Shown one piece after another: positions 1,043 through 60,254 of a stretch of 64,000 nucleotides of DNA. Position 1 is the first letter of the stretch. Each line of letters opens with the position of its first letter. This stretch comes from Schmidtea polychroa. Taxonomy: Eukaryota. A program made the translations under genes and the position numbers. Below the pieces are notes generated by a model. It saw only the letters and a list, made by a program, of their open reading frames with translations. It was not told the DNA's origin and searched no databases. The DNA lies in the NCBI GenBank assembly GCA_044892525.1, contig CM097885.1:62001-126000 (forward strand). Direction: 5' to 3'.

Positions 1043-1090
1043 TTCTTTAGTAGTAAATTCATATAGTAAAAATCCTTATAGTAAAAATCC

Positions 1091-1555: not shown

Positions 1556-1577
1556 TTTGTATTTTAAAACTTCGTAT

Positions 1578-2450: not shown

Positions 2451-2472
2451 TTTAATGGTATCAAAAATGGTA

Positions 2473-3048: not shown

Positions 3049-3063
3049 TTTATAATAAACAAA

Positions 3064-3855: not shown

Positions 3856-3866
3856 GGCTTGTCGAC

Positions 3867-5280: not shown

Positions 5281-5309
5281 TTTAAAATGTTAAAATATCA
5301 GGGATTATA

Positions 5310-9450: not shown

Positions 9451-9817
9451 ACCACATGAAATTATTGGTTAAATATGAAAATAAGGGTTATAATTAGTTG
9501 TTTAGTAAATTATGGTGTAAAATTAAGTAATAAAGCATAAATAGGTAAATTAAGGATAAGTAAATTAAAGTTAAAAAATTAAATTAAAGTTAATTAAGGT
9601 CCAAATTTTAAAAATAAGTAATCAATGTTCTAAAAAATTAAATTAAAGTTAAATAAGTAAATTAAAGTAATAATTTTTAAAGAATTTAATTAAAGTAATA
9701 ATTTTTAAATAAGTAATGTAATAAGTAAATTAAAGTAAGATTTTTAATTTTATTATCAAAAGATTGAATAACCACCAACTTTTTTGAGAAATGTAATTTA
9801 TAATGAAAATTTAAATG

Positions 9818-9868
<51 letters not shown>

Positions 9869-11291: not shown

Positions 11292-11745
11292 AGTAGTGAA
11301 TAGTAAGGACTCCAGGACACTTTCAAGGTCATCCCAATGTCCAGATCAAATATAGGTCAATCGAATCATTTTTTTTTTAATTAACATTTTATTTAATTAC
11401 TTCTTTTTAATTTTTTTTTTTTTTTTTTTTTTCATTTTAATTTTATTAATTAATTATTTTATTATGTTTTATTTTAATTTATTACATTTAATTAATTTAT
11501 TAGTTTATTAATATTTTATTTTAATTACTTACGCTATTTAATTATTATTATTATTATTATTATTTTTTTTTTTTTTAATTAATTTATTTATTTTTTAATT
11601 TTATTTAATTACTTCTATTTATTTTTTTTTTCTTTTTAATTTTCTTAATTAATTATTTTATTATGCTTTTATTTTAGTATTATTTTATTATTTTATTATT
11701 TTATTTATTATTATTATTTTTTTTTATTTTTTTATTTTTTTTTTA

Positions 11746-11776
<31 letters not shown>

Positions 11777-12289
11777 TTTTTTTTTTTATTTTTTTATTTT
11801 TTTTTAATTTTACATTTACATTATATTCTAACAAGAGGTAAATTATAACGATAATATTTCAATTTGAATAAAATTTTAATTAGTAATTATTCAATTTGAA
11901 TAAATTTTAATTAGAAATTATTTAATTTATTATAAAATAAAACGCTGAGTTAATTTTAGATAAACTGGATATTAATATTTCGGAAAAAATAAATAAATAA
12001 ATAAAATAAACACAAAAATAATATTTCTTACTTGAAACTAATTATCTAAATTAATTGGACAAATGAATAATTAAATGATAAAACACATTTTAATTAACTA
12101 AGTCAAACAATTCACAATATATATTTTATTATTCACATAAATTTAATTGTTAAAGTGCTTGTTTCGATTTGCATTCATTTCTAGACATAGCAGTTGCAAT
12201 ATGCATTTGGCGAATCTTATAGTGACCGTAGGCATAACTTTCATTACAATTGTACCAATACCTTTTATCGTCCAAACATTGGAGAGCTC
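11292..12289. mobile_element. Terminal fragment of element C including the last ~45 codons of polB
   Basis: Begins AGTAGTGAATAGTAAGG; direct copy of ~15641-16596; switches to B sequence at GAGCTC/ACGGC. Confidence 0.85.
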
Positions 12290-15200
12290 ACGGCTTGTTA
12301 TGTAATAAACTAGTTTAAATTACATATCCTCTCCACTTATATTCCTCCAATTCTCTATTTTTCACTAATTAATCACTAATATCCATCGATTTTCCACTAT
12401 TTAATCATTTGTATCCCCTCAATTTTCCATTAATTATTCACTTATGACCCCCCCCCACTCCGGATATTTAATCAATTATATTTCGCCGATTTTGATTAAT
12501 TATTCACTTCCCCACAAATATTTGTTTTAAAAGTTTTTATGAATTTTAAATAAATTCAATTAATATATTTCCATTCTTATCAACTTTCTTCTTATCTATG
12601 CCCATTCAATGATCCATTAATGAATTATTCTACCAATTATTTTCACCCATTTGAATTTATCATCGAGTAATTTCCTCACTTTAATGAAGATTCTTACCAC
12701 CTTCATTGTTAATTTTATCAAAGTTTAAAGAATATTTCTCTTTACATTGCTTACCACTTTAGAATTTTTATCGAAATTTATGATAATTTTACTGATTCAA
12801 TGAAGAATGAGTTAATTAATATATACTCTGAGTTTATCCGACAAAATATTCTGTCCCCCTATGGGTATTGCTCACAAGGGTACTACTCACATTCAACATG
12901 TCGCAAGGGTACTGATCATTTAATGCTTTTATTTGAATGATTATTTAGGCAAATTTGATGTTTAAGGCATTCATTGATAATTTTTAGAGTTGATGGTTTT
13001 AGTAAATATTCAAGTAAATTTCTATAATTTTTGTGAATTTTTATGAATTTTTTGTGGATTTTTATCATTCTTGTGAATTTCTATCATTTTTGTGAATTTT
13101 TATGAATTTTGTGAATTTCCATTATTTTCATGAATTTCCGTAATTTTTTGTGAATATGCGTAATTTTTGTAGATATCTATCATTTTCATGGATTTCTAAC
13201 ATTTTTGCAAATTTCATGTTTATTGAATGAATATTTAATAATTTAAAGTTAGTTCTAAGATAAATTTAATTAATTTCTTGATAATTGGATGTATTTTTAA
13301 TTTTAAATAAAAATTTATTTTAATGAGGTTAATAATTAAAGTTTGTACAATAATCAAGTGATAGGATAAATTTTTATGAGGATATTGAATAATTTTCTAA
13401 GAATTTCATGTTGACTGATTAAAAGTTTTAATGGTGATAAATTTAATTGATAAATTTAGTTAATTTCTTGATAATTAGTGGTATTTTATTGAATAGTTTT
13501 TAAATAAAAATTAATTTCATTGACAATTAGGTTAATAATTAAGTGATAGAATAAATTTTTGATGATAACTTTGTAATATATTTGACTAGATAATTTTTTT
13601 CAATAATTTTCTAAGAATATTTATCAATGACTTTAAATTTACTTGATAATTATTGTAGGATATACAGAAATTTAGTTTGCTGTTATTGCTTGAAAATGAT
13701 TGGTTGAATCGATGAAGAATTATGATCAATCAATATATATCATCTCCAGTATTTGATGGTAAATATTTGTAGAAAATTTTAGTAAATTTTGATCTTTTAG
13801 TGGGCTCTTATTATTTAGCTTCTAAATTATTTCAATGGAAGAATGCCTGGTGTCTTTAACAATTTATGAAAATTCATACTTTTTGAAGTTCTCTAAGGAT
13901 ATTAAGAGGATTGATATATATTAAAGGGTTCAAGTGGGTGGAATCTTTAGGGAAATTAAGGGATATAATCGGATAGATGTTTAAAAGGGTAGAAATATTT
14001 GCTGAGAGATCGGATAAGATGGGATATTATCGATTAGATTTAATGAGAGATGGGAATATATGATTTTTAAAGGGATATAGTCGGTTAGATTTAATGAGAG
14101 ATCGGTTAAGATGGGATATTGTTGGTTAGATTTAATGAGAGATCGGTTAAGATGGGGAAAATATGATCTTTTAAGGGGATATAGTCGGTTAGATTTAATG
14201 TGAGATGGGTTAAGATGGGAATATATTATTGTAAGGGAGATATAGTCGGTTGCTTTTAATGAGGGAAGGGTTTCGATGGGAATATATGATTTTTTAAGGG
14301 TGATGTTGGTAAAATATCAATGTTTTTTAAGGAAATTGCAATACATTAGTCAGTTATGAATCAATAATAATTATATCGTTTTATTAGGTTGTGATTAATG
14401 CACAGTAAATTAATTTAGAACAATGTTTTATTAAGTAGGGATAATGATCGATTTACTTGGTTTTGACAATGAAATCTTTACAGATAATTGGGATTGATAT
14501 CAACTTTAATTTATTTTTATCTTTATTTAGGCGGAGAATGACAAAAGTTTAGAAATATGGACTTAAAACATCGACTTAATAAAATTGATCTTTATTGGAA
14601 GAAATCTTGATTTTAATTAGTAATTAAATCGGTTGAATATTGGTAAAAATGATCATTTGAAGAAATATATTTTATTGAATGGATAAATTTAATCTTTTAA
14701 TGGGACCTAGTCAGTTATATTTATTTTAAATTTCGAGTACAGTGATTAACAAAAAGTTAATTATAACCAGTTTTATCAATAGTGAAACATGTATGATAAT
14801 AGGAATTAAAGTTAGAATTATAGTCATTTAAAGGGGAGTTTAAGCAATCTTATTAGTCTGAGGGGAATATATGATCTTTAACAAGTACTTATCATTAAAA
14901 TATCAATCTTAAAAGATAGAGTTATTTCAGGGAAATTTGATGCTTTTTAGATGATTTTAGTGAAATATTTGTAATAATATGAATTAAGGGTAGAAATATA
15001 GTCATTTAAGGGATTTTAAGGAATCTTGTTAGTTTGAGGTAAATATATGATCTTTAACAAGTATTTATCATTACAATACTAATCTTTACATATTGATATA
15101 TTTGGGAGGAAATGAGAAATTGGAGAATTCACTAGGATATACCAATTATTGTCATTTAAATAAATTTACTGGTTTATTAGATGTTATCATTAGTTATCTA

Positions 15201-15640
15201 GTCTCTTTTGGAATTTTATGATAATTATTTTTATTGTAGATTGCTGACTTTGATAATTGTAATGAATTTATACTGATTTTTTTTGAATATATTGAGAAAT
15301 CAGTCAATCAATTTGAGTACATGTATTACTTTTACAAAAATAATTAAATTTAATTTTATTTAAATTAATTTATTCAATCTTAATCAATTATCTACTAGAT
15401 CTTATCTTATTAATTTATTATCTTAGTTGATTCAACTTGAATGATCAGCATTTTTTTTTATTTATTGGATGATTAGAATTTTTTCTTGTCCATTAATTAA
15501 ATTTTTATGATATTTATTTTGAATAATTTAAATTTTTACAATTATTTAATCAATTTTTACCAAGTTATTGATGCCTTGAGTTCAAATAATTTTTCATCCA
15601 ATTTTTCAAGTGAAGAGTATTTGCTTTTAAAGATCAATTT
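12288..15640. repeat. Inner right-arm segment of B
   Basis: Same sequence and orientation as ~43282-46637; contains GATGGG/TCGGTTAGATTTAATGAG repeats near 13990-14300. Confidence 0.85.
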
Positions 15641-16455
15641 GTAGTGAATAGTAAGGACTCCAGGACACTTTCAAGGTCATCCCAATGTCCAGATCAAATA
15701 TAGGTCAATCGAATCATTTTTTTTTTTTTTAATTAACATTTTATTTAATTACTTCTTTTTAATTTTTTTTTTTTTTTTTTTTCATTTTAATTTTATTAAT
15801 TAATTATTTTATTATGTTTTATTTTAATTTATTACATTTAATTAATTTATTAGTTTATTAATATTTTATTTTAATTACTTACGCTATTTAATTATTATTA
15901 TTATTATTATTATTTTTTTTTTTTAATTAATTTATTTATTTTTTAATTTTATTTAATTACTTCTATTTATTTTTTTTTTCTTTTTAATTTTCTTAATTAA
16001 TTATTTTATTATGCTTTTATTTTAGTATTATTTTATTATTTTATTATTTTATTTATTATTATTATTTTTTTTTTATTTTTTATTTTTTTTTTTATTATTT
16101 TTTTTTTTTTTAATTTTACATTTACATTATATTCTAACAAGAGGTAAATTATAACGATAATATTTCAATTTGAATAAAATTTTAATTAGTAATTATTCAA
16201 TTTGAATAAATTTTAATTAGAAATTATTTAATTTATTATAAAATAAAACGCTGAGTTAATTTTAGATAAACTGGATATTAATATTTCGGAAAAAATAAAT
16301 AAATAAATAAAATAAACACAAAAATAATATTTCTTACTTGAAACTAATTATCTAAATTAATTGGACAAATGAATAATTAAATGATAAAACACATTTTAAT
16401 TAACTAAGTCAAACAATTCACAATATATATTTTATTATTCACATAAATTTAATTG

Positions 16456-19400
16456 TTAAAGTGCTTGTTTCGATTTGCATTCATTTCTAGACATAGCAGT
16501 TGCAATATGCATTTGGCGAATCTTATAGTGACCGTAGGCATAACTTTCATTACAATTGTACCAATACCTTTTATCGTCCAAACATTGGAGAGCTCGTTTT
16601 TCTGTCATGAAAGTATACAACTGATGATTGACACTTCCTATTCTTTTTTGTGGGATGCTCACTGTTCCACCATCAGTATACACTTTTTTATAGGCTTCAT
16701 GTGTAAGATTAGAGTTTGTAAGTCTTATTCCTTTGGCTTTTAGAGTGTTTTTATCGACTTGGAGTGAGTAGCACTTGGGTCGAAGAAACACCCATTCTTT
16801 ATATTGATTTCCTTTATTCTCATCCTTGAATTTCCTGATTACCGAACAAATTTTATCTGAGAACAATGGATCAGTCACTGGATAATTTGAAGTATCTAGG
16901 AGCCCATCGGCAATCATTTTTGGATATAGTTGTAAGCGTAAATCTACATTTTTACACTCTAAAAAGAAGGAATCTGTGTCACCGGCTACGATATTAATTT
17001 GACAATTGAATTCTTCTCTATAACTCTGTAGTTCTTTATATTGAAACTGGTACATGCGAAGTTTGGATAAATCAAGTACGGTTTGTCCAATATACATTGG
17101 TCTATCTAAACACACAATTTCCTTATTGAGTATAACAGCAATGAGATCATCCGCAATCTTGATGCTACGACGAAACATAGGATTACTACAATAAGTTATC
17201 AATCTTTTGCTTTTGCTGCATAATCTCAAATTTATACGTTTCTTCAAGTTTTCCACAGTTTTACCGTATAAACTGTTGTTCTTTAACTTATAATAATCTC
17301 GCTGAAACGAATCTGTACTAGCTGCTCTCATTTTGGTATTGTAATCAATATAGCCTTTGAAAATAGCCACTTGCTTGAATTCTACAGCACGATTAACTTT
17401 TGTGACTTTTGCGCCGTAACTCAACCACTCTGTCAAAACTCTACCATTAACTACATAGTTTTTCTTAGGCTCATGAGTTAACAACAGCTTTTCAACTTTA
17501 CTACCAGGTGGATAACAAAGCTCAGGAGCTATAGGTAAATCATCTAGTTTATCTTGTATACTATCAGGAATGACGATGTCAACCTCTAGAACATATCCAA
17601 GATCTCCATCAAACTTATCCCCATTTGCACATCTTTCAACAATACCATTCATTTCAGTCTGATCATTTATCCATCTAAATTCACCAACAGGAAGTTTTTG
17701 CGACAGCGCCCATCCATATAAATTATTAACATCTAGGTATGACATTTGTGTTGATTCATCAGCTTCAACATGATGTTTGTTGATAAATGTCATTCCACCA
17801 CGAATACCAGCTTCAAATAAACGGTAAAGCTCTGGATCTTGAATAAGTTCTACTGGTTCAGGTAACTGTTTAATAGCTGATGCCCAACTTAATCCGGGTA
17901 TGGAAACAAACGATAGAGCCTCAAGTCCATCTTCGTCAAATGTTTTTTCTCTGAAAGCTTCAAAAACATCGGCCAACAGAAAAACATCCAACTTGAGATA
18001 TACTAGCATGTAATCTAGCAGTGTCTCACAGTTGTATTGTCGCCAGATTCGATTTGCATGTATATAATCTTCTTGACTAACTCCCTCCCAAATCGGTGGT
18101 AATTCTGTTATTGACTGTAAAACATCCATTGATGTAGCCATATCATAAGGAAATATGCCTTTACCAGTTATTATATGCGAATTGAAAATCTTTGAAGTAA
18201 GTGGAAGACGTGGCAAGTTTTTTGATAAATTTGCCAAGCTGCTATTTAAAAATTGTAAAGAATCAATGAATCTAATTCTTCTGCCTTTCGATGTCGCTGT
18301 AAGTGTGAGAAACTTTTCTGTTGATTGAGGAATAACAATTAAATTCCAATCGGGGAATTTTCCAATTGCATATTTTAATATATGATGAATGTCATATCCA
18401 CGAAGATTATGAAATACAACAGGTAAAGACGGATTGATTCTTCTAGCCAAATTACAATCTTGACACGCTGCTCCGAGATATTGACCGGTAAAATGATCAT
18501 GATCCCGAACAGGTATATTGATAATCTTTTTACAAAGGTAGCAATGAGTTTGATTCGTAAATTCTTCCTGCTGTTCCCAAGTGAGTTCCATCATTTCCTT
18601 CGATCCATTAATTTTATACCACGGATAAACTATGTCTGTAGCTATATCATCCAATGCTTGTATAAACTGAATGATACAGTTTTTCCCAACAAATGTTTCA
18701 TTTCGAATCGGACAACCTTGATGAAGAAGCACAAATTCAGATGCAATCGGCTCATGTTTTTGGAAGTGCTTGTCATCTAGAGGTAATATTGATTCAAAGT
18801 CCGCGTAGACAACAAACTGCTGTTTTATAGTTTTACTCCAGTCTTTAAATTCGATATATTTATTCTCTGGCATTGAGTATAGAGTCGTCCGCTCCACATT
18901 CTTCCTACAAAGACCTATATGTCTTTCAAAAGCAGGACGTTTTTGAAACCCATGAAGACACGTATGACACCAATGTGATTGGATTCTGACTCCTTCTACT
19001 CTATCTCTGTAATTGAGCAGTCGATCGAGATTAGTTACAGCCAAAAAATGATAATTTAATTCTAAAATTTAGTTAATATTTTTAATGATTAAAAGAAATA
19101 TTACCTTCTTCAATCAATAAGAGATATAATTGACATCCCGTCGAAGTACTTCTATATACCAAGTCAACGAACGGATTCTTGAAAATATCATTAGTTTTTT
19201 GTTTAATTGGATCTTTATTATATTTGAGAACATTGATCGCTAGATTAGGATTCATTGCCTCAAATTGGCAAATGTTAACCAACTTCATTGGAAACCAATC
19301 TGATTTCCATTTTAACTCTAAATATATATATTTTTAGAATGATATAAATATATATTACCACTTAAATTATATTTCATTACTCTTTCTCTGTGGTGTTTTA

Positions 19401-20431
19401 TGTCATCATAATGTAATACGGCCAGTATGCTATATAAAAAGCAGAATTGATCATTATTTTGAACATTAACTAAAGCCTGGCAGTTTTTCAGGTAATTTGG
19501 CGTTTTAATGTAACTTGAACCTAAGTAAATATCTTGATTTATATATATAATAATGTAAATAAACTTACCAGATACATGTATTATGTCTGATAATTTAGTT
19601 AAAATCATAGTAACTTCTAATATTTTATGAATTCTCCACCCACTACTTTGTTGAGTGTATTTCTCCAACTTTTCTTTTAATTTTTCAATTCCATCATTAA
19701 TAAATGAAGATGACATTGTAATTGCTTTATTCGACAAACACCATTTTTTAATTTCACCATCCTCTTTGATAAACTCTGCACAAAGTCCAAATTGGATTTT
19801 TACTGTACCCATTCGTTGAATATGATCTTCTATTTCTCTGATGAGACAATCTGGAACAACAATGTCAGGAGAATTAATTGCAGATACATCGCTTGTCAAT
19901 TCAACACGAGAACCATTTAAGTCAGACTCCCGACGTGGACACAATTGTATGTTAGAGTCTCCATTTCCGTAAAATATTGACTTTCGTTTTGTGGTGCCAG
20001 AGTTTTGTCTAACTATATTTATAATTAATATTAAACAACTTAAATAACATAACTTGTAACATATTCTTTAATCTGCTTAGGATCGTATGATGTATTCATT
20101 TTCGGTTGTACTATAAAAAATTAATAATTGTTAATAGTAGAAAGAGTATTACTTTTAGTGATCATCCTGCTCTTCGTTTCTTCGAATCTTCTAAGATGGT
20201 GTCCGTGTTGTCGTACAAACATTAACCACCTACCTGGTGATATAATGAGACATTCCGGACATATGTAACCCGATAAGGTAGAGTCATTTATCTTGAAATA
20301 TGATGATGTAACTGATTTACAGTTCTCCACATCTTCATGACTTTCGGCAATACAAAATTTATATAAACTGCATCCGTTCACTAAAAGAAAATAATCATTA
20401 ATATTAGATAGAGAATAAAAAATTATTCACT
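16456..20431 (-). CDS. polB: Protein-primed family B DNA polymerase, spliced, mirror copy
   Basis: Coordinates sum to 44285 with the + copy. Same predicted exon structure; five amino-acid differences between the ORF-track translations. Confidence 0.88.
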
Positions 20432-20454
20432 TATATAAGTTAAATTAAAAGTTT

Positions 20455-20595
20455 AAATGACAAACATTTGAAAAGTTACTGCTTATATATTACACATGAT
20501 TAAATTCTGACCAATCAAAATCAAGGAAGGGGTAGGAAAAATAAATATATTCTGACCAATCAAAATCAAGGAAGGGGTAGGAAAAATAAATGTGT
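20455..20595 (-). promoter_or_regulatory. Predicted Pol II promoter of C polB (mirror copy)
   Basis: Two CCAAT boxes in a 45-bp duplication, TATA box, initiator-like TCATT. Confidence 0.55.
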
Positions 20596-21164
20596 TACAG
20601 TATTTTAAAAGTTCAATATATTTTAAAACACATTTTGATGCTAAAGTTGACTTATTTAACATTTTCATAATAATTTAATAAAAATAATGTGATGAACCCA
20701 CAAAGTAATATCATTTTTCATCAAATTGCAAAACAGTAATAACGTTTTCATAAAATTGTAACAAAATAATAACATATTTCAGATAAATTTTCAACAGTTG
20801 TAAAATATTTAAACAAATTGTAACAAGATTAGAAAATATTACAACAAAGTAGTAACATATTTCAGAAAATTTCAACAAAGTTGTAAAATATTTATCAAAT
20901 TGTAACTAAAATAATAAAAATATTGCAACAAAGTAATAAAATAATGATGTTAATTGGGACAAATCAATACATTATTTCGAAGACGGACAACAAATTAAAA
21001 AGAATATTGTAATAAATTGTGAAGTCTTTCAGTAAATTACAACAAAGTAATAACATATTTCGGAAATATTTCACCAGATGTAAAATATTTAAGCAAAATG
21101 TTATAAGATTATAAAAATATTGCAACAAAGTAATAAAATAATACAACATTTTAAACTCTAGATC

Positions 21165-21910
21165 AATCCATTTTATAGAAAATTAAATTTTATCTCTATA
21201 ATATATGAATAAATATACAAGGAAATTACGTTAACTGTATGAAAAATACAAATTTATCGTAAAAAACATGTGTGTATTACACACAACATACAAGACATAA
21301 TTTTTAATCAAGCTATTTTATAGAAAATTAAATTTTATCTATATAATATATGAATAAATATTCAAGGAAATTACGTTAACGTATAATAAATACAAATTTA
21401 TCATAAAAACATGTGTGTATTACACAAAAAAACAAGATACATAATTTCTAATCAATCCATTTTATAGAAAATTAAATTTTATCTATATTATATGAATAAA
21501 ATCCTAAGAAAATTACGTTAACTATATGAAAAATACAAATTTATCTTAAAAACATGTGTGTATTACACACAGAACAAGATACATAATTTCTAATCAATCC
21601 ATTTTATAGAAAATTAAATTTTATCTATATATTATATGAATAAAATCCTAAGAAAATTACGTTAACTGTATGAAAAATACAAATTTATCGTAAAAACATG
21701 TGTGTATTACACACAAAGCGACAAACTAAAATTGTAATTGAGCCATTTTATAGAAAATTAAATTTTATCTATATAATATATGAATAAAAATCCAAGAAAA
21801 TTACGTTAACCGCGCGAAAAATACAAATTTATCGTAAAAACATGTGTGTATTACACACAAAGCGACAATCTAAAATTGTAATTGAGCCATTTTGTAGAGA
21901 ATTAAATTCT
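21165..21910. repeat. ~144-bp tandem repeat, five units plus a partial
   Basis: Unit starts at about 21168, 21313, 21457, 21599, 21743, 21887; contains TGTGTGTATTACACACA and ACGTTAAC. Confidence 0.9.
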
Positions 21911-21979
21911 GCCTATACATGGTTACACTTAAATCCCAATCGAACAAAGAGAAAAGAGAGAAAAAGAGAGAGAAAAAAC

Positions 21980-22305
21980 AGTAGAGTAGGGTATTGTGTG
22001 GACCCGGGAACAAAGACATATGACGTCATACCCCCCCCACCCCCCCGGGGGGAGGGGGGGGTTTTAAATATTTTTTTAAATTTTTTTTTAAAATTTTTTT
22101 TTTAAAAATTTATATTACGTTGCGGTATTTTAAAATTTATATTACGTTGCGGTATTTTAAAATTTATATTACGTTGCGGTATTTTAAAAATATATTACGT
22201 TGCGGTATTTTAAAATTTAATTATATTTTATTCACATCATTCGTAAGGTCTTGAAGAGATCTATGCAAAGGTTTCACCCGGGTCCACACAATACCCTACT
22301 CTACT
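21980..22305. mobile_element. 326-bp mini-element of family D at the palindrome centre
   Basis: 29-bp TIR AGTAGAGTAGGGTATTGTGTGGACCCGGG. Left end matches the D end at 59470. Internal TGACGTCA, C-run/G-run and four TATATTACGTTGCGGTATTTTAAAA repeats. Confidence 0.85.
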
Positions 22306-22374
22306 GTTTTTTCTCTCTCTTTTTCTCTCTTTTCTCTTTGTTCGATTGGGATTTAAGTGTAACCATGTATAGGC

Positions 22375-23120
22375 AGAATTTAATTCTCTACAAAATGGCT
22401 CAATTACAATTTTAGTTTGTCGCTTTGTGTGTAATACACACATGTTTTTACGATAAATTTGTATTTTTCGCGCGGTTAACGTAATTTTCTTGGATTTTTA
22501 TTCATATATTATATAGATAAAATTTAATTTTCTATAAAATGGCTCAATTACAATTTTAGTTTGTCGCTTTGTGTGTAATACACACATGTTTTTACGATAA
22601 ATTTGTATTTTTCATACAGTTAACGTAATTTTCTTAGGATTTTATTCATATAATATATAGATAAAATTTAATTTTCTATAAAATGGATTGATTAGAAATT
22701 ATGTATCTTGTTCTGTGTGTAATACACACATGTTTTTAAGATAAATTTGTATTTTTCATATAGTTAACGTAATTTTCTTAGGATTTTATTCATATAATAT
22801 AGATAAAATTTAATTTTCTATAAAATGGATTGATTAGAAATTATGTATCTTGTTTTTTTGTGTAATACACACATGTTTTTATGATAAATTTGTATTTATT
22901 ATACGTTAACGTAATTTCCTTGAATATTTATTCATATATTATATAGATAAAATTTAATTTTCTATAAAATAGCTTGATTAAAAATTATGTCTTGTATGTT
23001 GTGTGTAATACACACATGTTTTTTACGATAAATTTGTATTTTTCATACAGTTAACGTAATTTCCTTGTATATTTATTCATATATTATAGAGATAAAATTT
23101 AATTTTCTATAAAATGGATT
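22375..23120. repeat. ~144-bp tandem repeat, mirror copy
   Basis: Reverse complement of 21165-21910. Confidence 0.9.
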
Positions 23121-23689
23121 GATCTAGAGTTTAAAATGTTGTATTATTTTATTACTTTGTTGCAATATTTTTATAATCTTATAACATTTTGCTTAAATAT
23201 TTTACATCTGGTGAAATATTTCCGAAATATGTTATTACTTTGTTGTAATTTACTGAAAGACTTCACAATTTATTACAATATTCTTTTTAATTTGTTGTCC
23301 GTCTTCGAAATAATGTATTGATTTGTCCCAATTAACATCATTATTTTATTACTTTGTTGCAATATTTTTATTATTTTAGTTACAATTTGATAAATATTTT
23401 ACAACTTTGTTGAAATTTTCTGAAATATGTTACTACTTTGTTGTAATATTTTCTAATCTTGTTACAATTTGTTTAAATATTTTACAACTGTTGAAAATTT
23501 ATCTGAAATATGTTATTATTTTGTTACAATTTTATGAAAACGTTATTACTGTTTTGCAATTTGATGAAAAATGATATTACTTTGTGGGTTCATCACATTA
23601 TTTTTATTAAATTATTATGAAAATGTTAAATAAGTCAACTTTAGCATCAAAATGTGTTTTAAAATATATTGAACTTTTAAAATACTGTA

Positions 23690-23830
23690 ACACATTTATT
23701 TTTCCTACCCCTTCCTTGATTTTGATTGGTCAGAATATATTTATTTTTCCTACCCCTTCCTTGATTTTGATTGGTCAGAATTTAATCATGTGTAATATAT
23801 AAGCAGTAACTTTTCAAATGTTTGTCATTT
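23690..23830 (+). promoter_or_regulatory. Predicted Pol II promoter of C polB
   Basis: ATTGG at 23725 and 23770, TATATAAG at 23796, TCATT with its A at 23827 (31 nt from the TATA start). Confidence 0.6.
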
Positions 23831-23853
23831 AAACTTTTAATTTAACTTATATA

Positions 23854-26800
23854 AGTGAATAATTTTTTATTCTCTATCTAATATTAATGATTATTTTCTT
23901 TTAGTGAACGGATGCAGTTTATATAAATTTTGTATTGCCGAAAGTCATGAAGATGTGGAGAACTGTAAATCAGTTACATCATCATATTTCAAGATAAATG
24001 ACTCTACCTTATCGGGTTACATATGTCCGGAATGTCTCATTATATCACCAGGTAGGTGGTTAATGTTTGTACGACAACACGGACACCATCTTAGAAGATT
24101 CGAAGAAACGAAGAGCAGGATGATCACTAAAAGTAATACTCTTTCTACTATTAACAATTATTAATTTTTTATAGTACAACCGAAAATGAATACATCATAC
24201 GATCCTAAGCAGATTAAAGAATATGTTACAAGTTATGTTATTTAAGTTGTTTAATATTAATTATAAATATAGTTAGACAAAACTCTGGCACCACAAAACG
24301 AAAGTCAATATTTTACGGAAATGGAGACTCTAACATACAATTGTGTCCACGTCGGGAGTCTGACTTAAATGGTTCTCGTGTTGAATTGACAAGCGATGTA
24401 TCTGCAATTAATTCTCCTGACATTGTTGTTTCAGATTGTCTCATCAGAGAAATAGAAGATCATATTCAACGAATGGGGACAGTAAAAATCCAATTTGGAC
24501 TTTGTGCAGAGTTTATCAAAGAGGATGGTGAAATTAAAAAACGGTGTTTGTCGAATAAAGCAATTACAATGTCATCTTCATTTATTAATGATGGAATTGA
24601 AAAATTAAAAGAAAAGTTGGAGAAATACACTCAACAAAGTAGTGGGTGGAGAATTCATAAAATATTAGAAGTTACTATGATTTTAACTAAATTATCAGAC
24701 ATAATACATGTATCTGGTAAGTTTATTTACATTATTATATATATAAATCAAGATATTTACTTAGGTTCAAGTTACATTAAAACGCCAAATTACCTGAAAA
24801 ACTGCCAGGCTTTAGTTAATGTTCAAAATAATGATCAATTCTGCTTTTTATATAGCATACTGGCCGTATTACATTATGATGACATAAAACACCACAGAGA
24901 AAGAGTAATGAAATATAATTTAAGTGGTAATATATATTTATATCATTCTAAAAATATATATATTTAGAGTTAAAATGGAAATCAGATTGGTTTCCAATGA
25001 AGTTGGTTAACATTTGCCAATTTGAGGCAATGAATCCTAATCTAGCGATCAATGTTCTCAAATATAATAAAGATCCAATTAAACAAAAAACTAATGATAT
25101 TTTCAAGAATCCGTTCGTTGACTTGGTATATAGAAGTACTTCGACGGGATGTCAATTATATCTCTTATTGATTGAAGAAGGTAATATTTCTTTTAATCAT
25201 TAAAAATATTAACTAAATTTTAGAATTAAATTATCATTTTTTGGCTGTAACTAATCTCGATCGACTGCTCAATTACAGAGATAGAGTAGAAGGAGTCAGA
25301 ATCCAATCACATTGGTGTCATACGTGTCTTCATGGGTTTCAAAAACGTCCTGCTTTTGAAAGACATATAGGTCTTTGTAGGAAGAATGTGGAGCGGACGA
25401 CTCTATACTCAATGCCAGAGAATAAATATATCGAATTTAAAGACTGGAGTAAAACTATAAAACAGCAGTTTGTTGTCTACGCGGACTTTGAATCAATATT
25501 ACCTCTAGATGACAAGCACTTCCAAAAACATGAGCCGATTGCATCTGAATTTGTGCTTCTTCATCAAGGTTGTCCGATTCGAAATGAAACATTTGTTGGG
25601 AAAAACTGTATCATTCAGTTTATACAAGCATTGGATGATATAGCTACAGACATAGTTTATCCGTGGTATAAAATTAATGGATCGAAGGAAATGATGGAAC
25701 TCACTTGGGAACAGCAGGAAGAATTTACGAATCAAACTCATTGCTACCTTTGTAAAAAGATTATCAATATACCTGTTCGGGATCATGATCATTTTACCGG
25801 TCAATATCTCGGAGCAGCGTGTCAAGATTGTAATTTGGCTAGAAGAATCAATCCGTCTTTACCTGTTGTATTTCATAATCTTCGTGGATATGACATTCAT
25901 CATATATTAAAATATGCAATTGGAAAATTCCCCGATTGGAATTTAATTGTTATTCCTCAATCAACAGAAAAGTTTCTCACACTTACAGTGACATCGAAAG
26001 GCAGAAGAATTAGATTCATTGATTCTTTACAATTTTTAAATAGCAGCTTGGCAAATTTATCAAAAAACTTGCCACGTCTTCCACTTACTTCAAAGATTTT
26101 CAATTCGCATATAATAACTGGTAAAGGCATATTTCCTTATGATATGGCTACATCAATGGATGTTTTACAGTCAATAACAGAATTACCACCGATTTGGGAG
26201 GGAGTTAGTCAAGAAGATTATATACATGCAAATCGAATCTGGCGACAATACAACTGTGAGACACTGCTAGATTACATGCTAGTATATCTCAAGTTGGATG
26301 TTTTTCTGTTGGCCGATGTTTTTGAAGCTTTCAGAGAAAAAACATTTGACGAAGATGGACTTGAGGCTCTATCGTTTGTTTCCATACCCGGATTAAGTTG
26401 GGCATCAGCTATTAAACAGTTACCTGAACCAGTAGAACTTATTCAAGATCCAGAGCTTTACCGTTTATTTGAAGCTGGTATTCGTGGTGGAATGACATTT
26501 ATCAACAAACATCATGTTGAAGCTGATGAATCAACACAAATGTCATACCTAGATGTTAATAATTTATATGGATGGGCGCTGTCGCAAAAACTTCCTGTTG
26601 GTGAATTTAGATGGATAAATGATCAGACTGAAATGAATGGTATTGTTGAAAGATGTGCAAATGGGGATAAGTTTGATGGAGATCTTGGATATGTTCTAGA
26701 GGTTGACATCGTCATTCCTGATAGTATACAAGATAAACTAGATGATTTACCTATAGCTCCTGAGCTTTGTTATCCACCTGGTAGTAAAGTTGAAAAGCTG

Positions 26801-27829
26801 TTGTTAACTCATGAGCCTAAGAAAAACTATGTAGTTAATGGTAGAGTTTTGACAGAGTGGTTGAGTTACGGCGCAAAAGTCACAAAAGTTAATCGTGCTG
26901 TAGAATTCAAGCAAGTGGCTATTTTCAAAGGCTATATTGATTACAATACCAAAATGAGAGCAGCTAGTACAGATTCGTTTCAGCGAGATTATTATAAGTT
27001 AAAGAACAACAGTTTATACGGTAAAACTGTGGAAAACTTGAAGAAACGTATAAATTTGAGATTATGCAGCAAAAGCAAAAGATTGATAACTTATTGTAGT
27101 AATCCTATGTTTCGTCGTAGCATCAAGATTGCGGATGATCTCATTGCTGTTATACTCAATAAGGAAATTGTGTGTTTAGATAGACCAATGTATATTGGAC
27201 AAACCGTACTTGATTTATCCAAACTTCGCATGTACCAGTTTCAATATAAAGAACTACAGAGTTATAGAGAAGAATTCAATTGTCAAATTAATATCGTAGC
27301 CGGTGACACAGATTCCTTCTTTTTAGAGTGTAAAAATGTAGATTTACGCTTACAACTATATCCAAAAATGATTGCCGATGGGCTCCTAGATACTTCAAAT
27401 TATCCAGTGACTGATCCATTGTTCTCAGATAAAATTTGTTCGGTAATCGGGAAATTCAAGGATGAGAATAAAGGAAATCAATATAAAGAATGGGTGTTTC
27501 TTCGACCCAAGTGCTACTCACTCCAAGGCGATAAAAACACTCTAAAAGCCAAAGGAATAAGACTTACAAACTCTAATCTTACACATGAAGCCTATAAAAA
27601 AGTGTATACTGATGGTGGAACAGTGAGCATCCCACAAAAAAGAATAGGAAGTGTCAATCATCAGTTGTATACTTTCATGACAGAAAAACGAGCTCTCCAA
27701 TGTTTGGACGATAAAAGGTATTGGTACAATTGTAATGAAAGTTATGCCTACGGTCACTATAAGATTCGCCAAATGCATATTGCAACTGCTATGTCTAGAA
27801 ATGAATGCAAATCGAAACAAGCACTTTAA
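23854..27829 (+). CDS. polB: Protein-primed family B DNA polymerase with endonuclease VII-like insertion; predicted 7 coding exons, 1236 aa
   Basis: Motifs YADFE, FHNLRGYD, YLKLDV, YLDVNNLYG, KLKNNSLYGK, AGDTDS, and RDHDHFTG..AACQDCN. Predicted GT-AG introns 23855-23904, 24133-24174, 24232-24272, 24717-24764, 24927-24967, 25181-25223 give one open frame. Joins 4-6 align with the intronless D PolB. Confidence 0.9.
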
Positions 27830-30108
27830 CAATTAAATTTATGTGAATAATAAAATATATATTGTGAATTGTTTGACTTAGTTAATTAAAATGTGTTTTA
27901 TCATTTAATTATTCATTTGTCCAATTAATTTAGATAATTAGTTTCAAGTAAGAAATATTATTTTTGTGTTTATTTTATTTATTTATTTATTTTTTCCGAA
28001 ATATTAATATCCAGTTTATCTAAAATTAACTCAGCGTTTTATTTTATAATAAATTAAATAATTTCTAATTAAAATTTATTCAAATTGAATAATTACTAAT
28101 TAAAATTTTATTCAAATTGAAATATTATCGTTATAATTTACCTCTTGTTAGAATATAATGTAAATGTAAAATTAAAAAAAAATAAAAAAATAAAAAAAAA
28201 AAAAATAAAATAAAAAAAAAAAAAATAAAAAATAAAAAAAAAATAAAAAAATAAAAAAAAATAATAATAATAAATAAAATAATAAAATAATAAAATAATA
28301 CTAAAATAAAAGCATAATAAAATAATTAATTAAGAAAATTAAAAAGAAAAAAAAAATAAATAGAAGTAATTAAATAAAATTAAAAAATAAATAAATTAAT
28401 TAAAAAAAAAAAAAATAATAATAATAATAATAATAATTAAATAGCGTAAGTAATTAAAATAAAATATTAATAAACTAATAAATTAATTAAATGTAATAAA
28501 TTAAAATAAAACATAATAAAATAATTAATTAATAAAATTAAAATGAAAAAAAAAAAAAAAAAAAAATTAAAAAGAAGTAATTAAATAAAATGTTAATTAA
28601 AAAAAAAATGATTCGATTGACCTATATTTGATCTGGACATTGGGATGACCTTGAAAGTGTCCTGGAGTCCTTACTATTCACTACTTTGGAGAATTCACTA
28701 GGATATACCAATTATTGTCATTTAAATAAATTTACTGGTTTATTAGATGTTATCATTAGTTATCTAGTCTCTTTTGGAATTTTATGATAATTATTTTTAT
28801 TGTAGATTGCTGACTTTGATAATTGTAATGAATTTATACTGATTTTTTTTGAATATATTGAGAAATCAGTCAATCAATTTGAGTACATGTATTACTTTTA
28901 CAAAAATAATTAAATTTAATTTTATTTAAATTAATTTATTCAATCTTAATCAATTATCTACTAGATCTTATCTTATTAATTTATTATCTTAGTTGATTCA
29001 ACTTGAATGATCAGCATTTTTTTTTATTTATTGGATGATTAGAATTTTTTCTTGTCCATTAATTAAATTTTTATGATATTTATTTTGAATAATTTAAATT
29101 TTTACAATTATTTAATCAATTTTTACCAAGTTATTGATGCCTTGAGTTCAAATAATTTTTCATCCAATTTTTCAAGTGAAGAGTATTTGCTTTTAAAGAT
29201 CAATTTGTTAGTACATAGTTGTTGGTTCTAGGTAGTTGGTTGTTAGTACTTGGTACTTGGTAGTTGGTATCTGATTGACTTTTTAGATTTTGATAAGAAA
29301 ATAGTGTATGCGATGAAGAATATTTTGTATTTAATTGCTATTATTTTTATGTGTTGTTAGTTGATTGTTGGTACTAAGTTGTTGGTTTCTTGTATTTGGT
29401 AGTTGGTACAGTGTTGTTTACTGATTGTTATATAGTTGTAGGTTGATATTTGTTAATTTCTCGATGGGTTTTGATGGTGGTTGTTAGTAGTTGTTGTTTG
29501 AAACCTAGTGGTTAGTACTTAGTAGCTAGTTAATGGGTAGGTTGTGGTTAAGTGTTACCAATACCCCTACGACTAGTACCTTTACGACCAGTACCCTTAC
29601 GACTAATACCCTTACGACCTGTACCCTTAGGGGGTCAAAACATCCTGTCGGATAAACTCAGAGTATATATAATAAAACTGATCAATAATAAGTATCTATT
29701 GAATGTGATTTTTACTTTGCAATAATAAGTCAGTAGTTATCATTTAAAAGAAGAATGTTTTGTAAATTAGAATTCATTAGTCTTTCATTGTAATTATTTT
29801 GAATTCCACGTGGTGTTTTAAAGTGGTTGAGTTGTGGTTTTTTGATGAAAATCAACATTTTTGTTAAATTTAGACATTTTGAAAAGGTTTTTCTACTGAT
29901 TGTAATTAAAATTATTATAGAAGCTGTATAAAAAATATTAATTTAAAAAGCATTTCATAAAATACAGTGAAGAATATTTAGTAGTTAGTTGTAAGTATCT
30001 GGTTGTTTGAGAGTTAGTTAGTACGTGGTATCTAGTTGTAAGTATTTGTTAGCACCTAGTTAAAAAATAATCAGTAACCGATTGTTGGTAACTGTTGAAT
30101 TATTATTA

Positions 30109-30156
<48 letters not shown>

Positions 30157-33100
30157 CATTTAAATTTTCATTATAAATTACATTTCTCAAAAAAGTTGGT
30201 GGTTATTCAATCTTTTGATAATAAAATTAAAAATCTTACTTTAATTTACTTATTACATTACTTATTTAAAAATTATTACTTTAATTAAATTCTTTAAAAA
30301 TTATTACTTTAATTTACTTATTTAACTTTAATTTAATTTTTTAGAACATTGATTACTTATTTTTAAAATTTGGACCTTAATTAACTTTAATTTAATTTTT
30401 TAACTTTAATTTACTTATCCTTAATTTACCTATTTATGCTTTATTACTTAATTTTACACCATAATTTACTAAACAACTAATTATAACCCTTATTTTCATA
30501 TTTAACCAATAATTTCATGTGGTCATCTGGTTGTAAGTGTTTGGTATCTAGTTGACAGTACTAGGTATCTTGTACTTGGTTGTTAGTACTTGGTTGATAA
30601 TGCTTAGTGTCTGGTTGTATGTACTTGGTATCTAGTTGTTAGTAACTAGTTGTAGGTAATTAATGCTTAGTAGTTGGTAACTGGTTGTTAGTATCTAGTT
30701 GTAGGTGGTAGCTAGTTGGTTGTAGGTACTTAGTAGTTGGTTGATAATGCTTAGTACTTGGTAGGTGGTTGTTAGTTGGTTGTAGGTACTTAGTAGTTGG
30801 TAATTAATGCTTAGTACCTGGTTGATGTTGGTTGTAGGTACTTAGTAGTTGGTAGCTAGTTGGTTGCTATCAGGTAACTAGTTGTTAGTAACTAGTTGTA
30901 GGTATCTGGTTGTTAATACATGTTCGTAATTTACTGGTACTTGGTATCTAGTTGTTAGTTGTTAGCGGGTTGTTAGTAACTAGGTATCTAGTTGTTAGTA
31001 CTTGGTTGATAATGCTTAGTACCTGGTTGATGTTGGTTGTTAGTACTTAGTAGTTGGTAGCTAGTTGTTAGTAACTAGTTGTAAGTACTTGGTATCTGGT
31101 TGTTAGTTGTTATCTGGTTGTGAGTAGTTGGTATCGGGTTGTTAGCTGGTTGATAGTACTTGGTATCTGGTATTTAGTTGTAGGTACTTGGTTGTTTGAG
31201 AGTTTTTTAGTACGTGGTATCTAGTTGTAGGTACTTGGTATCAGGTAACTGGTTGTTAGTATCTAGTTGTAAGTACTTGGTAGTTGGTTGTTAGTTGTTG
31301 GTATCAGGTTGTAAGCTGGTTGATAGTACTTGGTATCTGGTTGTTAGTTGTTAGCGGGTTGTTAGTAACTAGGTATCTAGTTGTTAGTACTTGGTTGATA
31401 ATGCTTAGTACCTGGTTGATGTTGGTAGTTAGTACTTAGTAGTTGGTAGCTAGTTGTTAGTAACTAGTTGTAAGTACTTGGTATCTGGTTGTTAGTTGTT
31501 ATCTGGTTGTGAGTAGTTGGTATCAGGTTGTTAGCTGGTTGATAGTACTTGGTATCTGGTAATTAGTTGTAGGTACTTGGTTGTTTGAGAGTTATTTAGT
31601 ACGTGGTATCTAGTTGTAGGTACTTAGTATCAGGTAACTGGTTGTTAGTATCTAGTTGTAAGTACTTGGTAGTTGGTTGTTAGTTGTTGGTATCAGGTTG
31701 TAAGCTGGTTGATAGTACTTGGTATCTGGTAATTAGTTGTAAGTACTTGGTTGTTTGAGAGTTATTTAGTACGTGTTATCTAGTTGTTAGCTGGTTGTAG
31801 CTAGTTAATGGGTAGGTGGTTGTTAGTAGTTGGTATCAGGTAACTAGTTGTAGGTATCTAGTTGTAGGTATCTGGTATCAGGTAACTGGTTGTTAGTAAC
31901 TAGTTGTAGGTATCTGGTTGTTAATACATGTTCATAAGTTACTGGTTGTTGGTACTAAGTTGTTGGTTTGTTGTTGAATTATTATTAAAATTTGTCTTTG
32001 AAAAATATTTCATAAAAATTTTCATTAAAAATTATCTTAAAAATTTCCATCTAAAATTATCATTGAAAAATATTTCATAAAAATTTCCATCTAAAATTAT
32101 CATTGAAAAATATTTCATAAAAATTTCCATTAAAAATTACTTAAAAAATTATTTCATAAAAATTTCCATTAAAAATTACCTAAAAAAATATTTCATAAAA
32201 ATTTCCATTAAAAATTACCTAAAAAAATATTTCATAAAAATTTCCATTAAAAATTACTTAAAAAAAATATTTCATAAAAATTTCCATTAAAAAATTTCAA
32301 TTCTCAAACACCTTCAACTTTTTGTTAATAAATTTTAAAATCTTACTTTAATTTACTTATTACATTACTTTAATTTACTTATTTAAAAATTATTACTTTA
32401 ATTTACTTATTTAAAATTTTTTACCATTGATTACTTAATTTAAAAATTTGGACCATTATTTACTGTAATTTAATTTTTAAGAACTTAAATTTACTTTAAT
32501 TCAAAAATTTGGACCATTATTTACTTTAATTGAAAAATCTGGACCATAATTTACTGTAATTTAATATTTTAGAACCATAATTTACTTTAATTTAATTTTT
32601 AGAACCATTATTTACTGTAATTTAATTTTTTAGGACCATTATTACCTTATTTGAAAATTTGAGCCATAATTTACTTTAATTTAATTTTTTAGAACCATTA
32701 TTTACTTTAATTTAAAAATTTGAGCCATAATTTACTGTAATTTAATTTTTTAGGACCATAATTACCTTATTTGAAAAATTTGAACCATAATTTACTTTAA
32801 TTGAAAAATTTGGACCATAATTTACTGTAATTTAAAAATCTTAGTCCATAATTTACTGTAATTCAATTTTTAGACCCATAATTTACTGTAATTTTAAAAA
32901 ATTTACCACGTTTTTTAGTGTAGACCACCTTTGTCTATTGAAATTCTCAGGACCAAGGAGACCCACCTTAATTGACCTAGAAAAATCCATGCTTTTTTAG
33001 TGATAGTCGGATTTTTGTATTGAAAATATCCTGAGACCTTAAATTACCATGCTTTTTTAGTGTAGACCAGCTTTTTGTATTGAAAATATCCTGAGACCTT

Positions 33101-33700
33101 AAATTACCATGCTTTTTTAGTGTAGACCACCTATTTCTCAGGACCAAGGAGACTCACCTCACTATAGTGTGAAAAATTCCATGCTTTTTAGTGATAGTCG
33201 GATTTTTGTATTGAAAATCCCAGGACCATCGAGACCCCCTCACTATAGTGTGAAAAATTCCATGCTTTTTTAGTGGTAGTCGGATTTTTGTATTGAAAAT
33301 CCCAGGACCATCGAGACCCCCTCACTATAGTCTGAAAATTCTATGCTTTTTTATTGATAGTTATTGATAATTTTTTGTATTGAAAATCCCAGGACCATCG
33401 AGACCCCCTCACTATAGTCTGAAAATTCTATGCTTTTTTATTGATAGTCGGATTTTTGTATTGAAAAAAATTTTTTGTATTGAAAATCCCAGGACCATCG
33501 AGACCCCCTCACTATAGTGTGATAAAAAAAAAATTTGGACCAAAAATCCCTGAAAGCAAAAAAATGAGTTGGGAACAATTGCGTAATAAAAATTTGGGAA
33601 CAAACCCCCCCCCCCGGGGGGGGTAATTGTTCCCGTAGGCTACTATCTACCTACTATTAATTTCATCAATAAATAGTCACACATTAACAACTTATTTTAT

Positions 33701-38011: not shown

Positions 38012-38065
<54 letters not shown>

Positions 38066-47538: not shown

Positions 47539-47574
<36 letters not shown>

Positions 47575-59875: not shown

Positions 59876-60254
<379 letters not shown>

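Follow-up and report, generated by a model that had tools for sequence, protein, structure and literature searches.

A 13-kb palindrome with twin polymerase genes in Schmidtea polychroa, probably one of a mobile family of Maverick derivatives

The palindrome and its two polymerase genes

A long palindrome with one DNA polymerase gene in each arm occupies positions 15640-28685 of the window, the whole 64,000-nucleotide stretch of contig CM097885.1 that was analysed. The features of this unit and of its flanks are, in order of position:

11292..12289 (+): solo copy of the arm's outer 997 bp, with an exact terminus
15120..15639 (+): left copy of flanking repeat T, which recurs in direct orientation at 28686-29219
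15640..22008 (-): left arm of the palindrome, with an imprecise outer end
16456..20013 (-): pPolB gene of the left arm, mirror image of the right copy, from which it differs at five amino acids
21980..22305 (.): "mini-D", with D-type Maverick termini AGTAGGGTATTG... at 21985 (+) and 22300 (-), each after AGTAG
22009..22276 (+): unpaired centre, 268 nt
22277..28685 (+): right arm of the palindrome, with an exact outer terminus
22277..23667 (+): inner-arm module, mirrored at 20618-22008
22377..23123 (+): 144-bp tandem repeats, 5.2 copies, adjoining the centre and mirrored at about 21162-21908
23149-23585: further short repeat arrays in the right arm
24272..27829 (+): pPolB gene of the right arm, open reading frame pieces 24341-24967 and 25241-27829 forming one gene; 5' end provisional
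28167..28590 (+): A-rich subterminal array within the arm's outer 1 kb, with its mirror copy at about 15730-16100

The arms pair without gaps over 5981 nt (16028-22008 against 22277-28257, self-comparison), and a gapped pairing of 22277-28684 with 22008-15641 gave 99.14% identity over 6412 columns. The original prediction had proposed that paired coordinates sum to 44285, which holds for the open reading frames at 16456-19044 and 25241-27829, for those at 19318-19944 and 24341-24967, and for the arm ends at 22008 and 22277. Arm pairing also confirmed 22009-22276 as the only unpaired stretch. Sixteen events separate the left and right arms of the window copy. These are seven substitutions in complex sequence, four substitutions and four length changes in the A-rich subterminal array (28183-28598), where most arm-to-arm length differences are found, and the outermost base, position 15640 being T where the family has A. 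The five amino acid differences originally noted between the polymerase copies (IRKF/IGKF, LQVD/LQGD, KKWC/KKRC, PD/SD, and TAT/TVT) are all present.

Each polymerase gene is split into pieces, and in the right-arm copy we recognized three short GT-AG introns by eye (about 24717-24764, 24927-24967, and 25181-25223). Because these introns explain the split pieces, no variant code was assumed for the element. Reading TGA as W (table 4) joins some split open reading frames elsewhere in the window, and this was not assumed for the polB of the element. The product belongs to family PF03175 (E = 3e-31), as Maverick/Polinton polymerases do, with visible SLYG and DTDS motifs. Homologues at E <= 1e-10 numbered 2926; the 53 top matches were all full length, stop-free, and at least 99% identical, and 40 of them formed 20 divergent pairs. 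A landmark at the 5' end of polB was found at 576 genomic positions, predominantly in (-,+) pairs with a spacing of about 6.2 kb.

The closest outside relative of the polymerase, 57% identical, comes from a metagenome contig on which an rve integrase and an A32-type ATPase are also found. Of 19 metagenome loci of at least 6 kb with a related polB, none had long inverted repeats or a second polB, although short-read assemblies would collapse palindromes. Besides the polB pieces, 15640-28685 contains no open reading frame of 120 aa or more, and the element has no integrase and no capsid, protease, or packaging ATPase gene. No RNA genes were found in the window by ARAGORN or Rfam. Parts of 21800-28700 were present in 20 sequencing runs from eight studies, all as contigs, and at least half of the sampled words of this region occurred in 11 of the 20 runs; there was no RNA data set among them.

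Copies elsewhere in the genome and their insertion

The centre together with both arm ends recurs at a minimum of 30 places in the genome. All nine other loci that we examined (20 kb each) are long palindromes, with arms of 3.5-6.5 kb and a within-copy arm identity of 98.8-99.9%. The boundary between arm and centre lies at the equivalent of 22277 in eight of these loci and at 22282 in one. Both arms extend to the equivalent of 28685 in seven, and the remaining two have one arm truncated. Perfect 6-bp direct repeats, as expected of target site duplications (TSDs), stand beside AGTAGTGAATAG.../...CTATTCACTACT in all seven copies that have both ends. The terminus AGTAGTGAATAG..., with the AG/(AGT)n end motif, stands at both ends in the nine other copies. 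In the seven complete copies, homology ends exactly at the element termini and the flanks are unrelated.

Genome-wide counts agree with a dispersed unit. A 29-mer from the terminus occurred 168 times (84 forward and 84 reverse; control 0), and the first 100 matches listed included 42 (+,-) pairs, 32 of which are 12-14.9 kb long. A 32-mer spanning centre and arm occurred 179 times. We note that the copy counts and the family structure come from one assembly. Exact termini (168) are far fewer than polB landmarks (576) and inner-arm landmarks (1084), and many relatives therefore lack canonical ends or have other ends. One terminus pair, 23.8 kb apart, encloses an integrase match.

Shared termini, 6-bp TSDs around the 13-kb unit, and differing flanks show that the inserting unit is the whole palindrome, which agrees with the predicted separate new unit that has the same outer end on both sides and carries two polymerase genes. 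The near-constant boundary between arm and centre points to one origin followed by spread. Since the end motif is in excess over expectation and the same build recurs across the genome, the architecture is not a chance arrangement. We regard 15640-28685 as probably a member of a young family of non-autonomous Maverick/Polinton derivatives that has many copies and is palindromic as a unit.

Palindromes are a known class of artefact, and a fold-back during library preparation or assembly would mean that only one arm is real. We judge this very unlikely, hardly to be entertained. The centre contains 268 bp of asymmetric sequence, and the arms differ at seven non-homopolymer sites, including the five amino acid changes. 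Other copies lie inside chromosome-size contigs, with unique flanks that differ on the two sides and between chromosomes; different unique flanks with matching 6-bp duplications are something that a fold-back chimera cannot yield, and the 20 divergent pairs among the 53 top polB matches also speak against it.

The window copy itself has altered ends. Its left outer end is imprecise (TGTAGTG compared with AGTAGTG... in the family, with 1-3 terminal bases missing) and joins repeat T through 2-3 nt of microhomology, and its right outer end (...CACTACT) matches the family terminus exactly and directly abuts the first base of repeat T. The copy thus lies between direct repeats of about 520-534 bp and has no 6-bp TSD. 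The solo arm end at 11292-12289 falls within a 3.66-kb inverted duplicate of the right junction (8637-12289 against 27690-31351). The window copy is rearranged, during or after insertion, and with no TSD, an imprecise left end, and repeat flanks, insertion of this copy by an integrase is putative.

Pairing of 8637-12289 with 27690-31351 means that the palindrome in the window extends into the flanks, as might be expected if a chromosomal palindrome had formed from a double-strand break beside a short inverted repeat and had spread by segmental duplication rather than transposition. The centre also has the signature of such a pathway, a short inverted repeat around a non-palindromic spacer. However, a fold-back in the chromosome would duplicate the flank too, and the seven other complete copies all stop at their termini with 6-bp TSDs and unrelated flanks, which indicates transposition. 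We give this explanation a small probability.

Sequence is transferred between the arms of the same copy, as shown by symmetric indels and by variants common to both arms. An identical 1029-bp deletion is present in each arm of one copy, as is an identical duplication of about 43 bp in each arm of another. Over 2.6 kb, the median number of arm differences was 3 within copies versus 12 between copies. Counted as copy-by-site cells with one outlier copy left out, minor variants were shared by both arms in 65 cells and confined to a single arm in 69. Five of the seven substitutions between the window arms are private to one arm. The similarity of the arms fits plain gene conversion as well as hairpin replication.

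The centre and the fold-back core

The unpaired centre contains the palindrome ATGACGTCAT, a G/C-rich hairpin, and 4.6 copies of a 27-bp repeat, and it is homologous to the subterminal region of a D-type Maverick at 59494-59700. The 29-nt ends of mini-D enclose it, one at 21980-22008 and the other, its complement, at 22277-22305; a related end was located at 59470. The 23-nt end motif had three matches compared with none expected. As single-stranded DNA, 21970-22315 is predicted to fold with its ends paired (z = -12.4). The prediction that the centre carries genuine ends of another element family was borne out, as a 32-mer that runs from the left arm end into the centre has 638 genomic occurrences, most of them in (+,-) pairs with a spacing of about 15.5 kb. 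The units between these D-type termini hold a single D-type polB and are ordinary Mavericks. Only 24-29 nt of the D-type right end are kept in the centre. The centre is a 316-326-bp miniature of this second, abundant, ordinary Maverick family, and with both termini of the parent family on a short element it resembles a MITE.

Both ends of mini-D abut the same arm position in opposite orientation, as had been noticed originally. A search for a TSD of mini-D found none, its flanks CAGTAG and CTACTG being inverted rather than direct repeats, and two candidate solo mini-D sites, L037 and L038, both lie in the same arm context. Because these flanking hexamers are not identical, insertion of the mini-element with a TSD into the exact centre of an older perfect palindrome was rejected. 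The suggestion that giant foldback elements such as element B arise in the same way gained no support, with no match to the end motif at the centre of B and no link of B to the palindrome found.

The original prediction had explained the locus by a local event, in which the 326-bp mini-element joined two pre-existing single-arm copies of the element ("C") head-to-head at this position. Inverse joining of both mini-element ends to the same arm position without a TSD is in keeping with such a fusion, as is the identity of those ends with real termini of an abundant family. Against it, the same junctions are dispersed, with 179 occurrences of the centre-to-arm 32-mer and a boundary common to eight of nine copies; all nine other loci are palindromic; and 6-bp TSDs surround the whole palindrome in all seven complete copies. 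The preponderance of window arm substitutions private to one arm is also what post-insertion divergence would produce. A non-exhaustive search found no single-arm C suitable as a fusion parent. As an event at this locus, the fusion is thus highly improbable, and what stands of the proposal is the distinct unit and the genuine ends in its centre. Head-to-head fusion is possible as an ancestral, one-time event, and the mini-element is a plausible, putative trigger of the ancestral inverted duplication.

The inner 1.39 kb of each arm and the centre together make up a fold-back core of about 3 kb that is 98.9% shared with a different polB lineage. At one locus (L039), homology extends as far as the equivalent of 23667, beyond which lies a different polB. 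Among the 40 top matches of this second lineage, 34 form 17 divergent pairs. Since the inner arms and the centre are common to the second lineage, the fold-back core is larger than the 326-bp mini-element.

These observations also suit a core that is itself a mobile foldback element and was inserted upstream of polB in several Maverick lineages, each then making its own palindrome. Inner-arm landmarks far exceed those of polB and the termini (1084 compared with 576 and 168), the change of polB at L039 coincides with the core boundary, and the second lineage likewise occurs as divergent pairs. However, no solo core with its own TSD was seen among the loci examined, the core boundary has no recognizable terminus motif, and recombination between lineages accounts for the sharing equally well. 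We consider a mobile core possible but rather doubtful.

Proposed origin and relation to known elements

A single origin followed by transposition can be outlined as follows. Each 6.4-kb arm is probably the polymerase end of a Maverick. It starts with an AGTAGT-type terminus, followed by about 0.8 kb of A-rich subterminal repeats, an outward-read, intron-bearing pPolB, and about 2 kb of repeat-rich upstream DNA, and the miniature of the second Maverick family joins the two arms head-to-head. Snap-back (copy-back) synthesis or fold-back repair at the inverted-repeat core may have produced the palindrome. Since each arm ends precisely at the element terminus, a linear extrachromosomal intermediate of replication would be the simplest setting. 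Integration could be carried out by an rve integrase supplied in trans from autonomous Mavericks, which abound in this genome. The integrase of the Maverick at 3867-4910 of the window is represented by no fewer than 117 copies of 99-100% identity, all but one of which (116) are stop-free; genes for capsid, protease, and packaging ATPase are found in a separate Maverick at 278-6596 of the window; and 12 of the first 17 bases of the family termini agree with those of D-type elements. The arms may be kept alike by hairpin or panhandle pairing in protein-primed replication, or by gene conversion.

More specifically, and as a tentative proposal, twin-polymerase palindromes may be copy-back defective Maverick genomes that turned into a self-propagating parasitic lineage. 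Protein-primed strand-displacement replication would have turned back at the fold-back core, leaving the polymerase end duplicated as an inverted dimer of near unit length, with a pair of identical origins and integrase sites. This form would then have multiplied to hundreds of copies, in two or more polB lineages with one core, its arms being re-homogenised through the hairpin in each cycle.

The element resembles Mavericks/Polintons in its PF03175 pPolB, its terminal inverted repeats, and the company of an rve integrase and an A32-type ATPase beside the closest outside polB. It differs from them in having no integrase, capsid, protease, or ATPase gene, in having two polB genes rather than one, and in the spliceosomal introns of these genes. 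Its 6.4-kb terminal inverted repeats are nearly the whole element and far exceed the lengths given for Mavericks/Polintons in two published sources, 46-1447 bp (PMC8097293) and 100-1500 bp (10.1101/2023.08.22.554363). We found no description of palindromic or twin-polB Mavericks in the literature.

Very long inverted arms, internal tandem repeats, and a short central loop are shared with foldback elements such as Drosophila FB and Galileo. Families of the FB type have this arm and loop architecture together with their own transposase and their own TSD length. In contrast, each arm described here contains a polymerase gene, and the element has Maverick-like termini and 6-bp duplications but no P-like or FB-type transposase.

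Copy-back genomes offer another comparison. Daniell reportedly described snap-back defective genomes in adenovirus incomplete-particle DNA in 1976, and Kikuchi et al. are said to have found hairpin or inverted-dimer derivatives of the yeast killer plasmid pGKL1 in 1985. As in those forms, one genome end is inversely duplicated, giving an inverted dimer with two identical origins, and half a genome is brought back towards unit length (13 kb here compared with about 15.5 kb for D-type Mavericks). The adenovirus and pGKL1 forms are extrachromosomal by-products of culture, whereas the palindromes described here are integrated, heritable, and present in scores to hundreds of copies, and for these we infer formation during replication. 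In Tetrahymena rDNA and in a yeast model, palindromes form at short inverted repeats. The present palindrome similarly has a short inverted repeat flanking a non-palindromic spacer exactly at its centre, but it is bounded by transposon termini and is mobile.

To our knowledge, Maverick replication has never been observed, and the model of a protein-primed linear intermediate is drawn from gene content alone. A young family with the architecture of a classic replication by-product provides a concrete test case for this model, its testable features being the inverted duplication of one end, the maintained identity of the arms, and the Maverick-type TSD on insertion. If the copy-back proposal is true, the family would represent a new class of non-autonomous element and would be the first genomic trace of linear, protein-primed genome replication in Mavericks. 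Independent of this, the family shows that a derivative encoding nothing but polymerase, with about 6.4 kb of terminal inverted repeat at each end, can be very successful, and annotation pipelines that expect repeats shorter than 1.5 kb and a nearby integrase would miss or split such a family. Scores to hundreds of near-perfect 13-kb palindromes are also potential sites of hairpins or cruciforms, double-stranded RNA, and rearrangement, and the rearranged window copy may exemplify palindrome-linked rearrangement.

A polymerase gene in each arm of the palindrome

The window (G000:C1:62001-126000) belongs to a eukaryotic assembly of 781 Mb with four chromosome-sized contigs (272, 190, 145, and 93 Mb); it has a G+C content of about 25% and consists of nested repeats, with no tRNA genes or Rfam families found in it. 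We confirmed the palindrome at the position given in the original prediction. Its arms pair without gaps over 5981 nt (16028-22008 with 22277-28257) and, when gaps are allowed (15641-22008 versus 22277-28684), are 99.14% identical over 6412 columns, with an unpaired centre at 22009-22276. All mirrored features have coordinates summing to 44285, and the five amino acid differences between arms quoted in that prediction are all present. The arms differ by 16 events in total: seven substitutions in complex sequence, four substitutions and four length changes in the A-rich array at 28183-28598, and the outermost base.

Features of the window (pPolB, protein-primed polymerase B)
278-6596: A32-type ATPase, rve integrase, and double-jelly-roll capsid genes (Pfam), part of a conventional Maverick
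15640-22008, minus: left arm of the palindromic element
22277-28685, plus: right arm
Within the arm, adjoining the centre: 144-bp repeats, 5.2 copies
Within the arm, near its outer end: A-rich array
16456-19044, 25241-27829, and 61285-63936: pPolB genes (Pfam)
38031-42358 versus 43245-47573: second large foldback (B), arms 99.84% alike, AT-rich centre of ~886 bp
59470-64000, running off the window: left end of a Maverick of a second family (D-type), terminus AGTAGGGTATTG
60536-61219, 61285-61746, and 61873-63936, minus: D-type polB, three ORF pieces, the last two separated by a single in-frame TGA

Two ORFs of 208 and 862 aa align with the polB of the element at 60-64 kb, the former with its N-terminus (38% identity, E = 2e-34) and the latter from residue 243 onward (50% identity). 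Full-length homologues (1158-1242 aa) are colinear over three frame pieces, and the gaps between ORF pieces, read by eye, have GT...AG borders and span 41-48 nt. Together, these alignments and borders show that the two ORFs form a single intron-bearing pPolB gene per arm. The gene has recognisable SLYG and DTDS polymerase motifs, reads from the centre outward, and ends ~0.8 kb short of the outer end. The rest of the arm is non-coding and repeat-rich, and an ORF and Pfam search of the window found no integrase or capsid gene within the palindromic element.

Insertion of the whole palindrome as a unit

A fusion of two element copies at this locus, as originally proposed, was not borne out. Full-length matches to the 501 bp around the centre occur in at least 30 other places, and we compared 20 kb around nine of these. 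Each of the nine loci contains a long palindrome whose two arms, 3.5-6.5 kb in length, match each other at 98.8-99.9% and whose outer ends read AGTAGTGAATAGTAAGG.... The inner arm end is the equivalent of 22277 in eight loci and of 22282 in one; seven loci have both arms extending to the equivalent of 28685, and two have one truncated arm. Perfect 6-bp direct repeats, differing in sequence, flank every copy having both ends (seven out of seven), and the flanks are unrelated. These comparisons show that insertion involves the palindrome as a whole, with ends and target-site duplications of Maverick type. The window palindrome is best read as a mobile palindromic Maverick derivative rather than a local fusion; judged from these sequences, an assembly artefact is a very unlikely source.

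Whole-genome exact-word counts (one mismatch allowed; reversed-pattern controls, 0)
Outer terminus word: 168 (84 + 84); among 100 listed matches, 42 (+,-) pairs, 32 of 12-14.9 kb, 8 shorter, and 2 longer
Centre-to-right-arm junction word: 179
polB 5' landmark: 576, mainly (-,+) pairs ~6.2 kb apart
Landmark at 24280: 669, mainly (-,+) pairs
Landmark at 23572: 1084, mainly (-,+) pairs ~2.9 kb apart

In a polB protein search, all 53 scored matches were full length, stop-free, and at least 99% identical. Forty of them form 20 divergent pairs, and at least four of the 13 unpaired matches do have a partner, seen in the compared loci or the window. Integrase may be provided in trans, and at least 117 genome copies (99%-100% identical) exist of the integrase at window 3867-4910. 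At G000:C2:131647627-131671399, family termini 23.8 kb apart enclose an integrase match (C2:131653943-131654983), which marks either one Maverick nested within another or a candidate for an autonomous relative.

Two published accounts describe Mavericks as having a single polB, an integrase, AG or (AGT)2 ends, and target-site duplications of 6 bp (5-8 bp) (PMC8097293, 10.1101/2023.08.22.554363); their terminal inverted repeats measure 46-1447 bp (PMC8097293) or 100-1500 bp (10.1101/2023.08.22.554363). No description of palindromic or twin-polB Mavericks was found in the literature searched. The closest outside polB (57% identity) lies within a conventional unit of Maverick type. Analogues among other systems include adenovirus incomplete-particle DNA, pGKL1 hairpin plasmids, and palindrome formation at short inverted repeats.

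The centre, the shared core, and exchange between arms

The ends of the 326-bp mini-element at the centre (21980-22305) are genuine element termini. Homology in most of ~40 other copies starts at the related end at 59470, and an exact 32-mer across the left arm end and centre occurs 638 times in the genome, mainly as (+,-) pairs ~15.5 kb apart. The seven such pairs that could be matched each contain exactly one D-type polB match, near one end. The D type is therefore an ordinary Maverick family with one polB, of which the centre is a miniature retaining only 24-29 nt of the second end. Termini of the palindromic and D-type families match at 12 of the first 17 bases. The original prediction asked whether the flanks of the mini-element are target-site duplications or inverted; at the window copy there is no target-site duplication, and the flanks (CAGTAG / CTACTG) are inverted. 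Centres differ among copies, some having duplicated or inverted centre units and one having ~1.6 kb of D-like DNA. Three divergent pairs occur among 65 D-type polB matches.

At a further locus (L039, G000:C1:2671800-2673300), arm homology ends at the equivalent of 23667 and is followed by a different polB N-terminus. Of the best 40 matches to the stretch specific to this lineage, 34 form 17 divergent pairs, 3.1-3.7 kb apart. From this homology stop and pairing, the centre and the adjoining 1.39 kb of either arm form a fold-back core common to at least two polB lineages, both twin-arranged. The second lineage has an apparently continuous ORF and 1450 candidates at first look.

Some indels and variants are shared between the arms of a copy. 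In one copy (G000:C3:113588576-113608575, covering loci L025 and L026), which retains an intact 6-bp target-site duplication, the two arms share a 1029-bp deletion within polB; another has a ~43-bp duplication identical in both arms, and a third has a 595-bp deletion confined to one arm. Across a 2.6-kb block, the median was three events between arms within a copy versus 12 between copies, and the partner arm was among the nearest in 16 of 26 cases. Minor variants (copy-by-site cells) were found in both arms in 80 cases versus one arm in 122, or 65 versus 69 without one copy having a strongly divergent arm. Among the seven window-arm substitutions, five are private to one arm (three left, two right) and two are rare in the family. 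The symmetric indels, likeness of arms within copies, and two-arm variants therefore require either gene conversion or renewed copying of one arm from its partner, and both fit.

Snap-back synthesis or fold-back repair, acting at the inverted-repeat core, could have given rise to the palindrome itself. Since the arms end precisely at the element terminus, the simplest setting would be a linear extrachromosomal intermediate. A 13-kb dimer, close in size to the ordinary family (15.5 kb), would meet constraints on packaging or integration.

The window copy and its neighbours

The window copy is atypical. Its right end is exact, with the first base of a 534-bp repeat (T) directly adjoining it, and its left end lacks 1-3 terminal bases and joins the last base of another direct T copy with 2-3 nt of microhomology; the 6-bp duplication is absent. 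The palindrome also reaches beyond the element: the right junction recurs as an inverted duplicate of 3.66 kb (8637-12289 versus 27690-31351, 99.2%), which comprises the arm's outermost 997 bp and flanking repeats and is interrupted by 12289-15640. Repeat T and its neighbours are parts of foldback B, whose arm segments also flank the twin-polB element. Foldback B itself contains no ORF of at least 120 aa, and its centre lacks the D-type end motif.

Several minor observations concern the surrounding repeats. The capsid gene of the Maverick at 278-6596 is split into ORFs of 146 and 277 aa, which are joined under TGA read-through. A tandem array at 51514-58474 (with 58475-58810 and 58810-59470) contains ~3.25 copies of a 2141-bp unit, 99.6%-99.7% alike, each with a 192-aa ORF having two HMG-box matches (PF00505, E = 5e-28); after the array comes a partial unit of 661 bp in inverted orientation, adjoining the D-type terminus at 59470. 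Two copies of a long non-coding repeat (X; 30991-33656 versus 37617-34928, 94.7%) meet back to back at 34928-34934, forming another palindromic junction.
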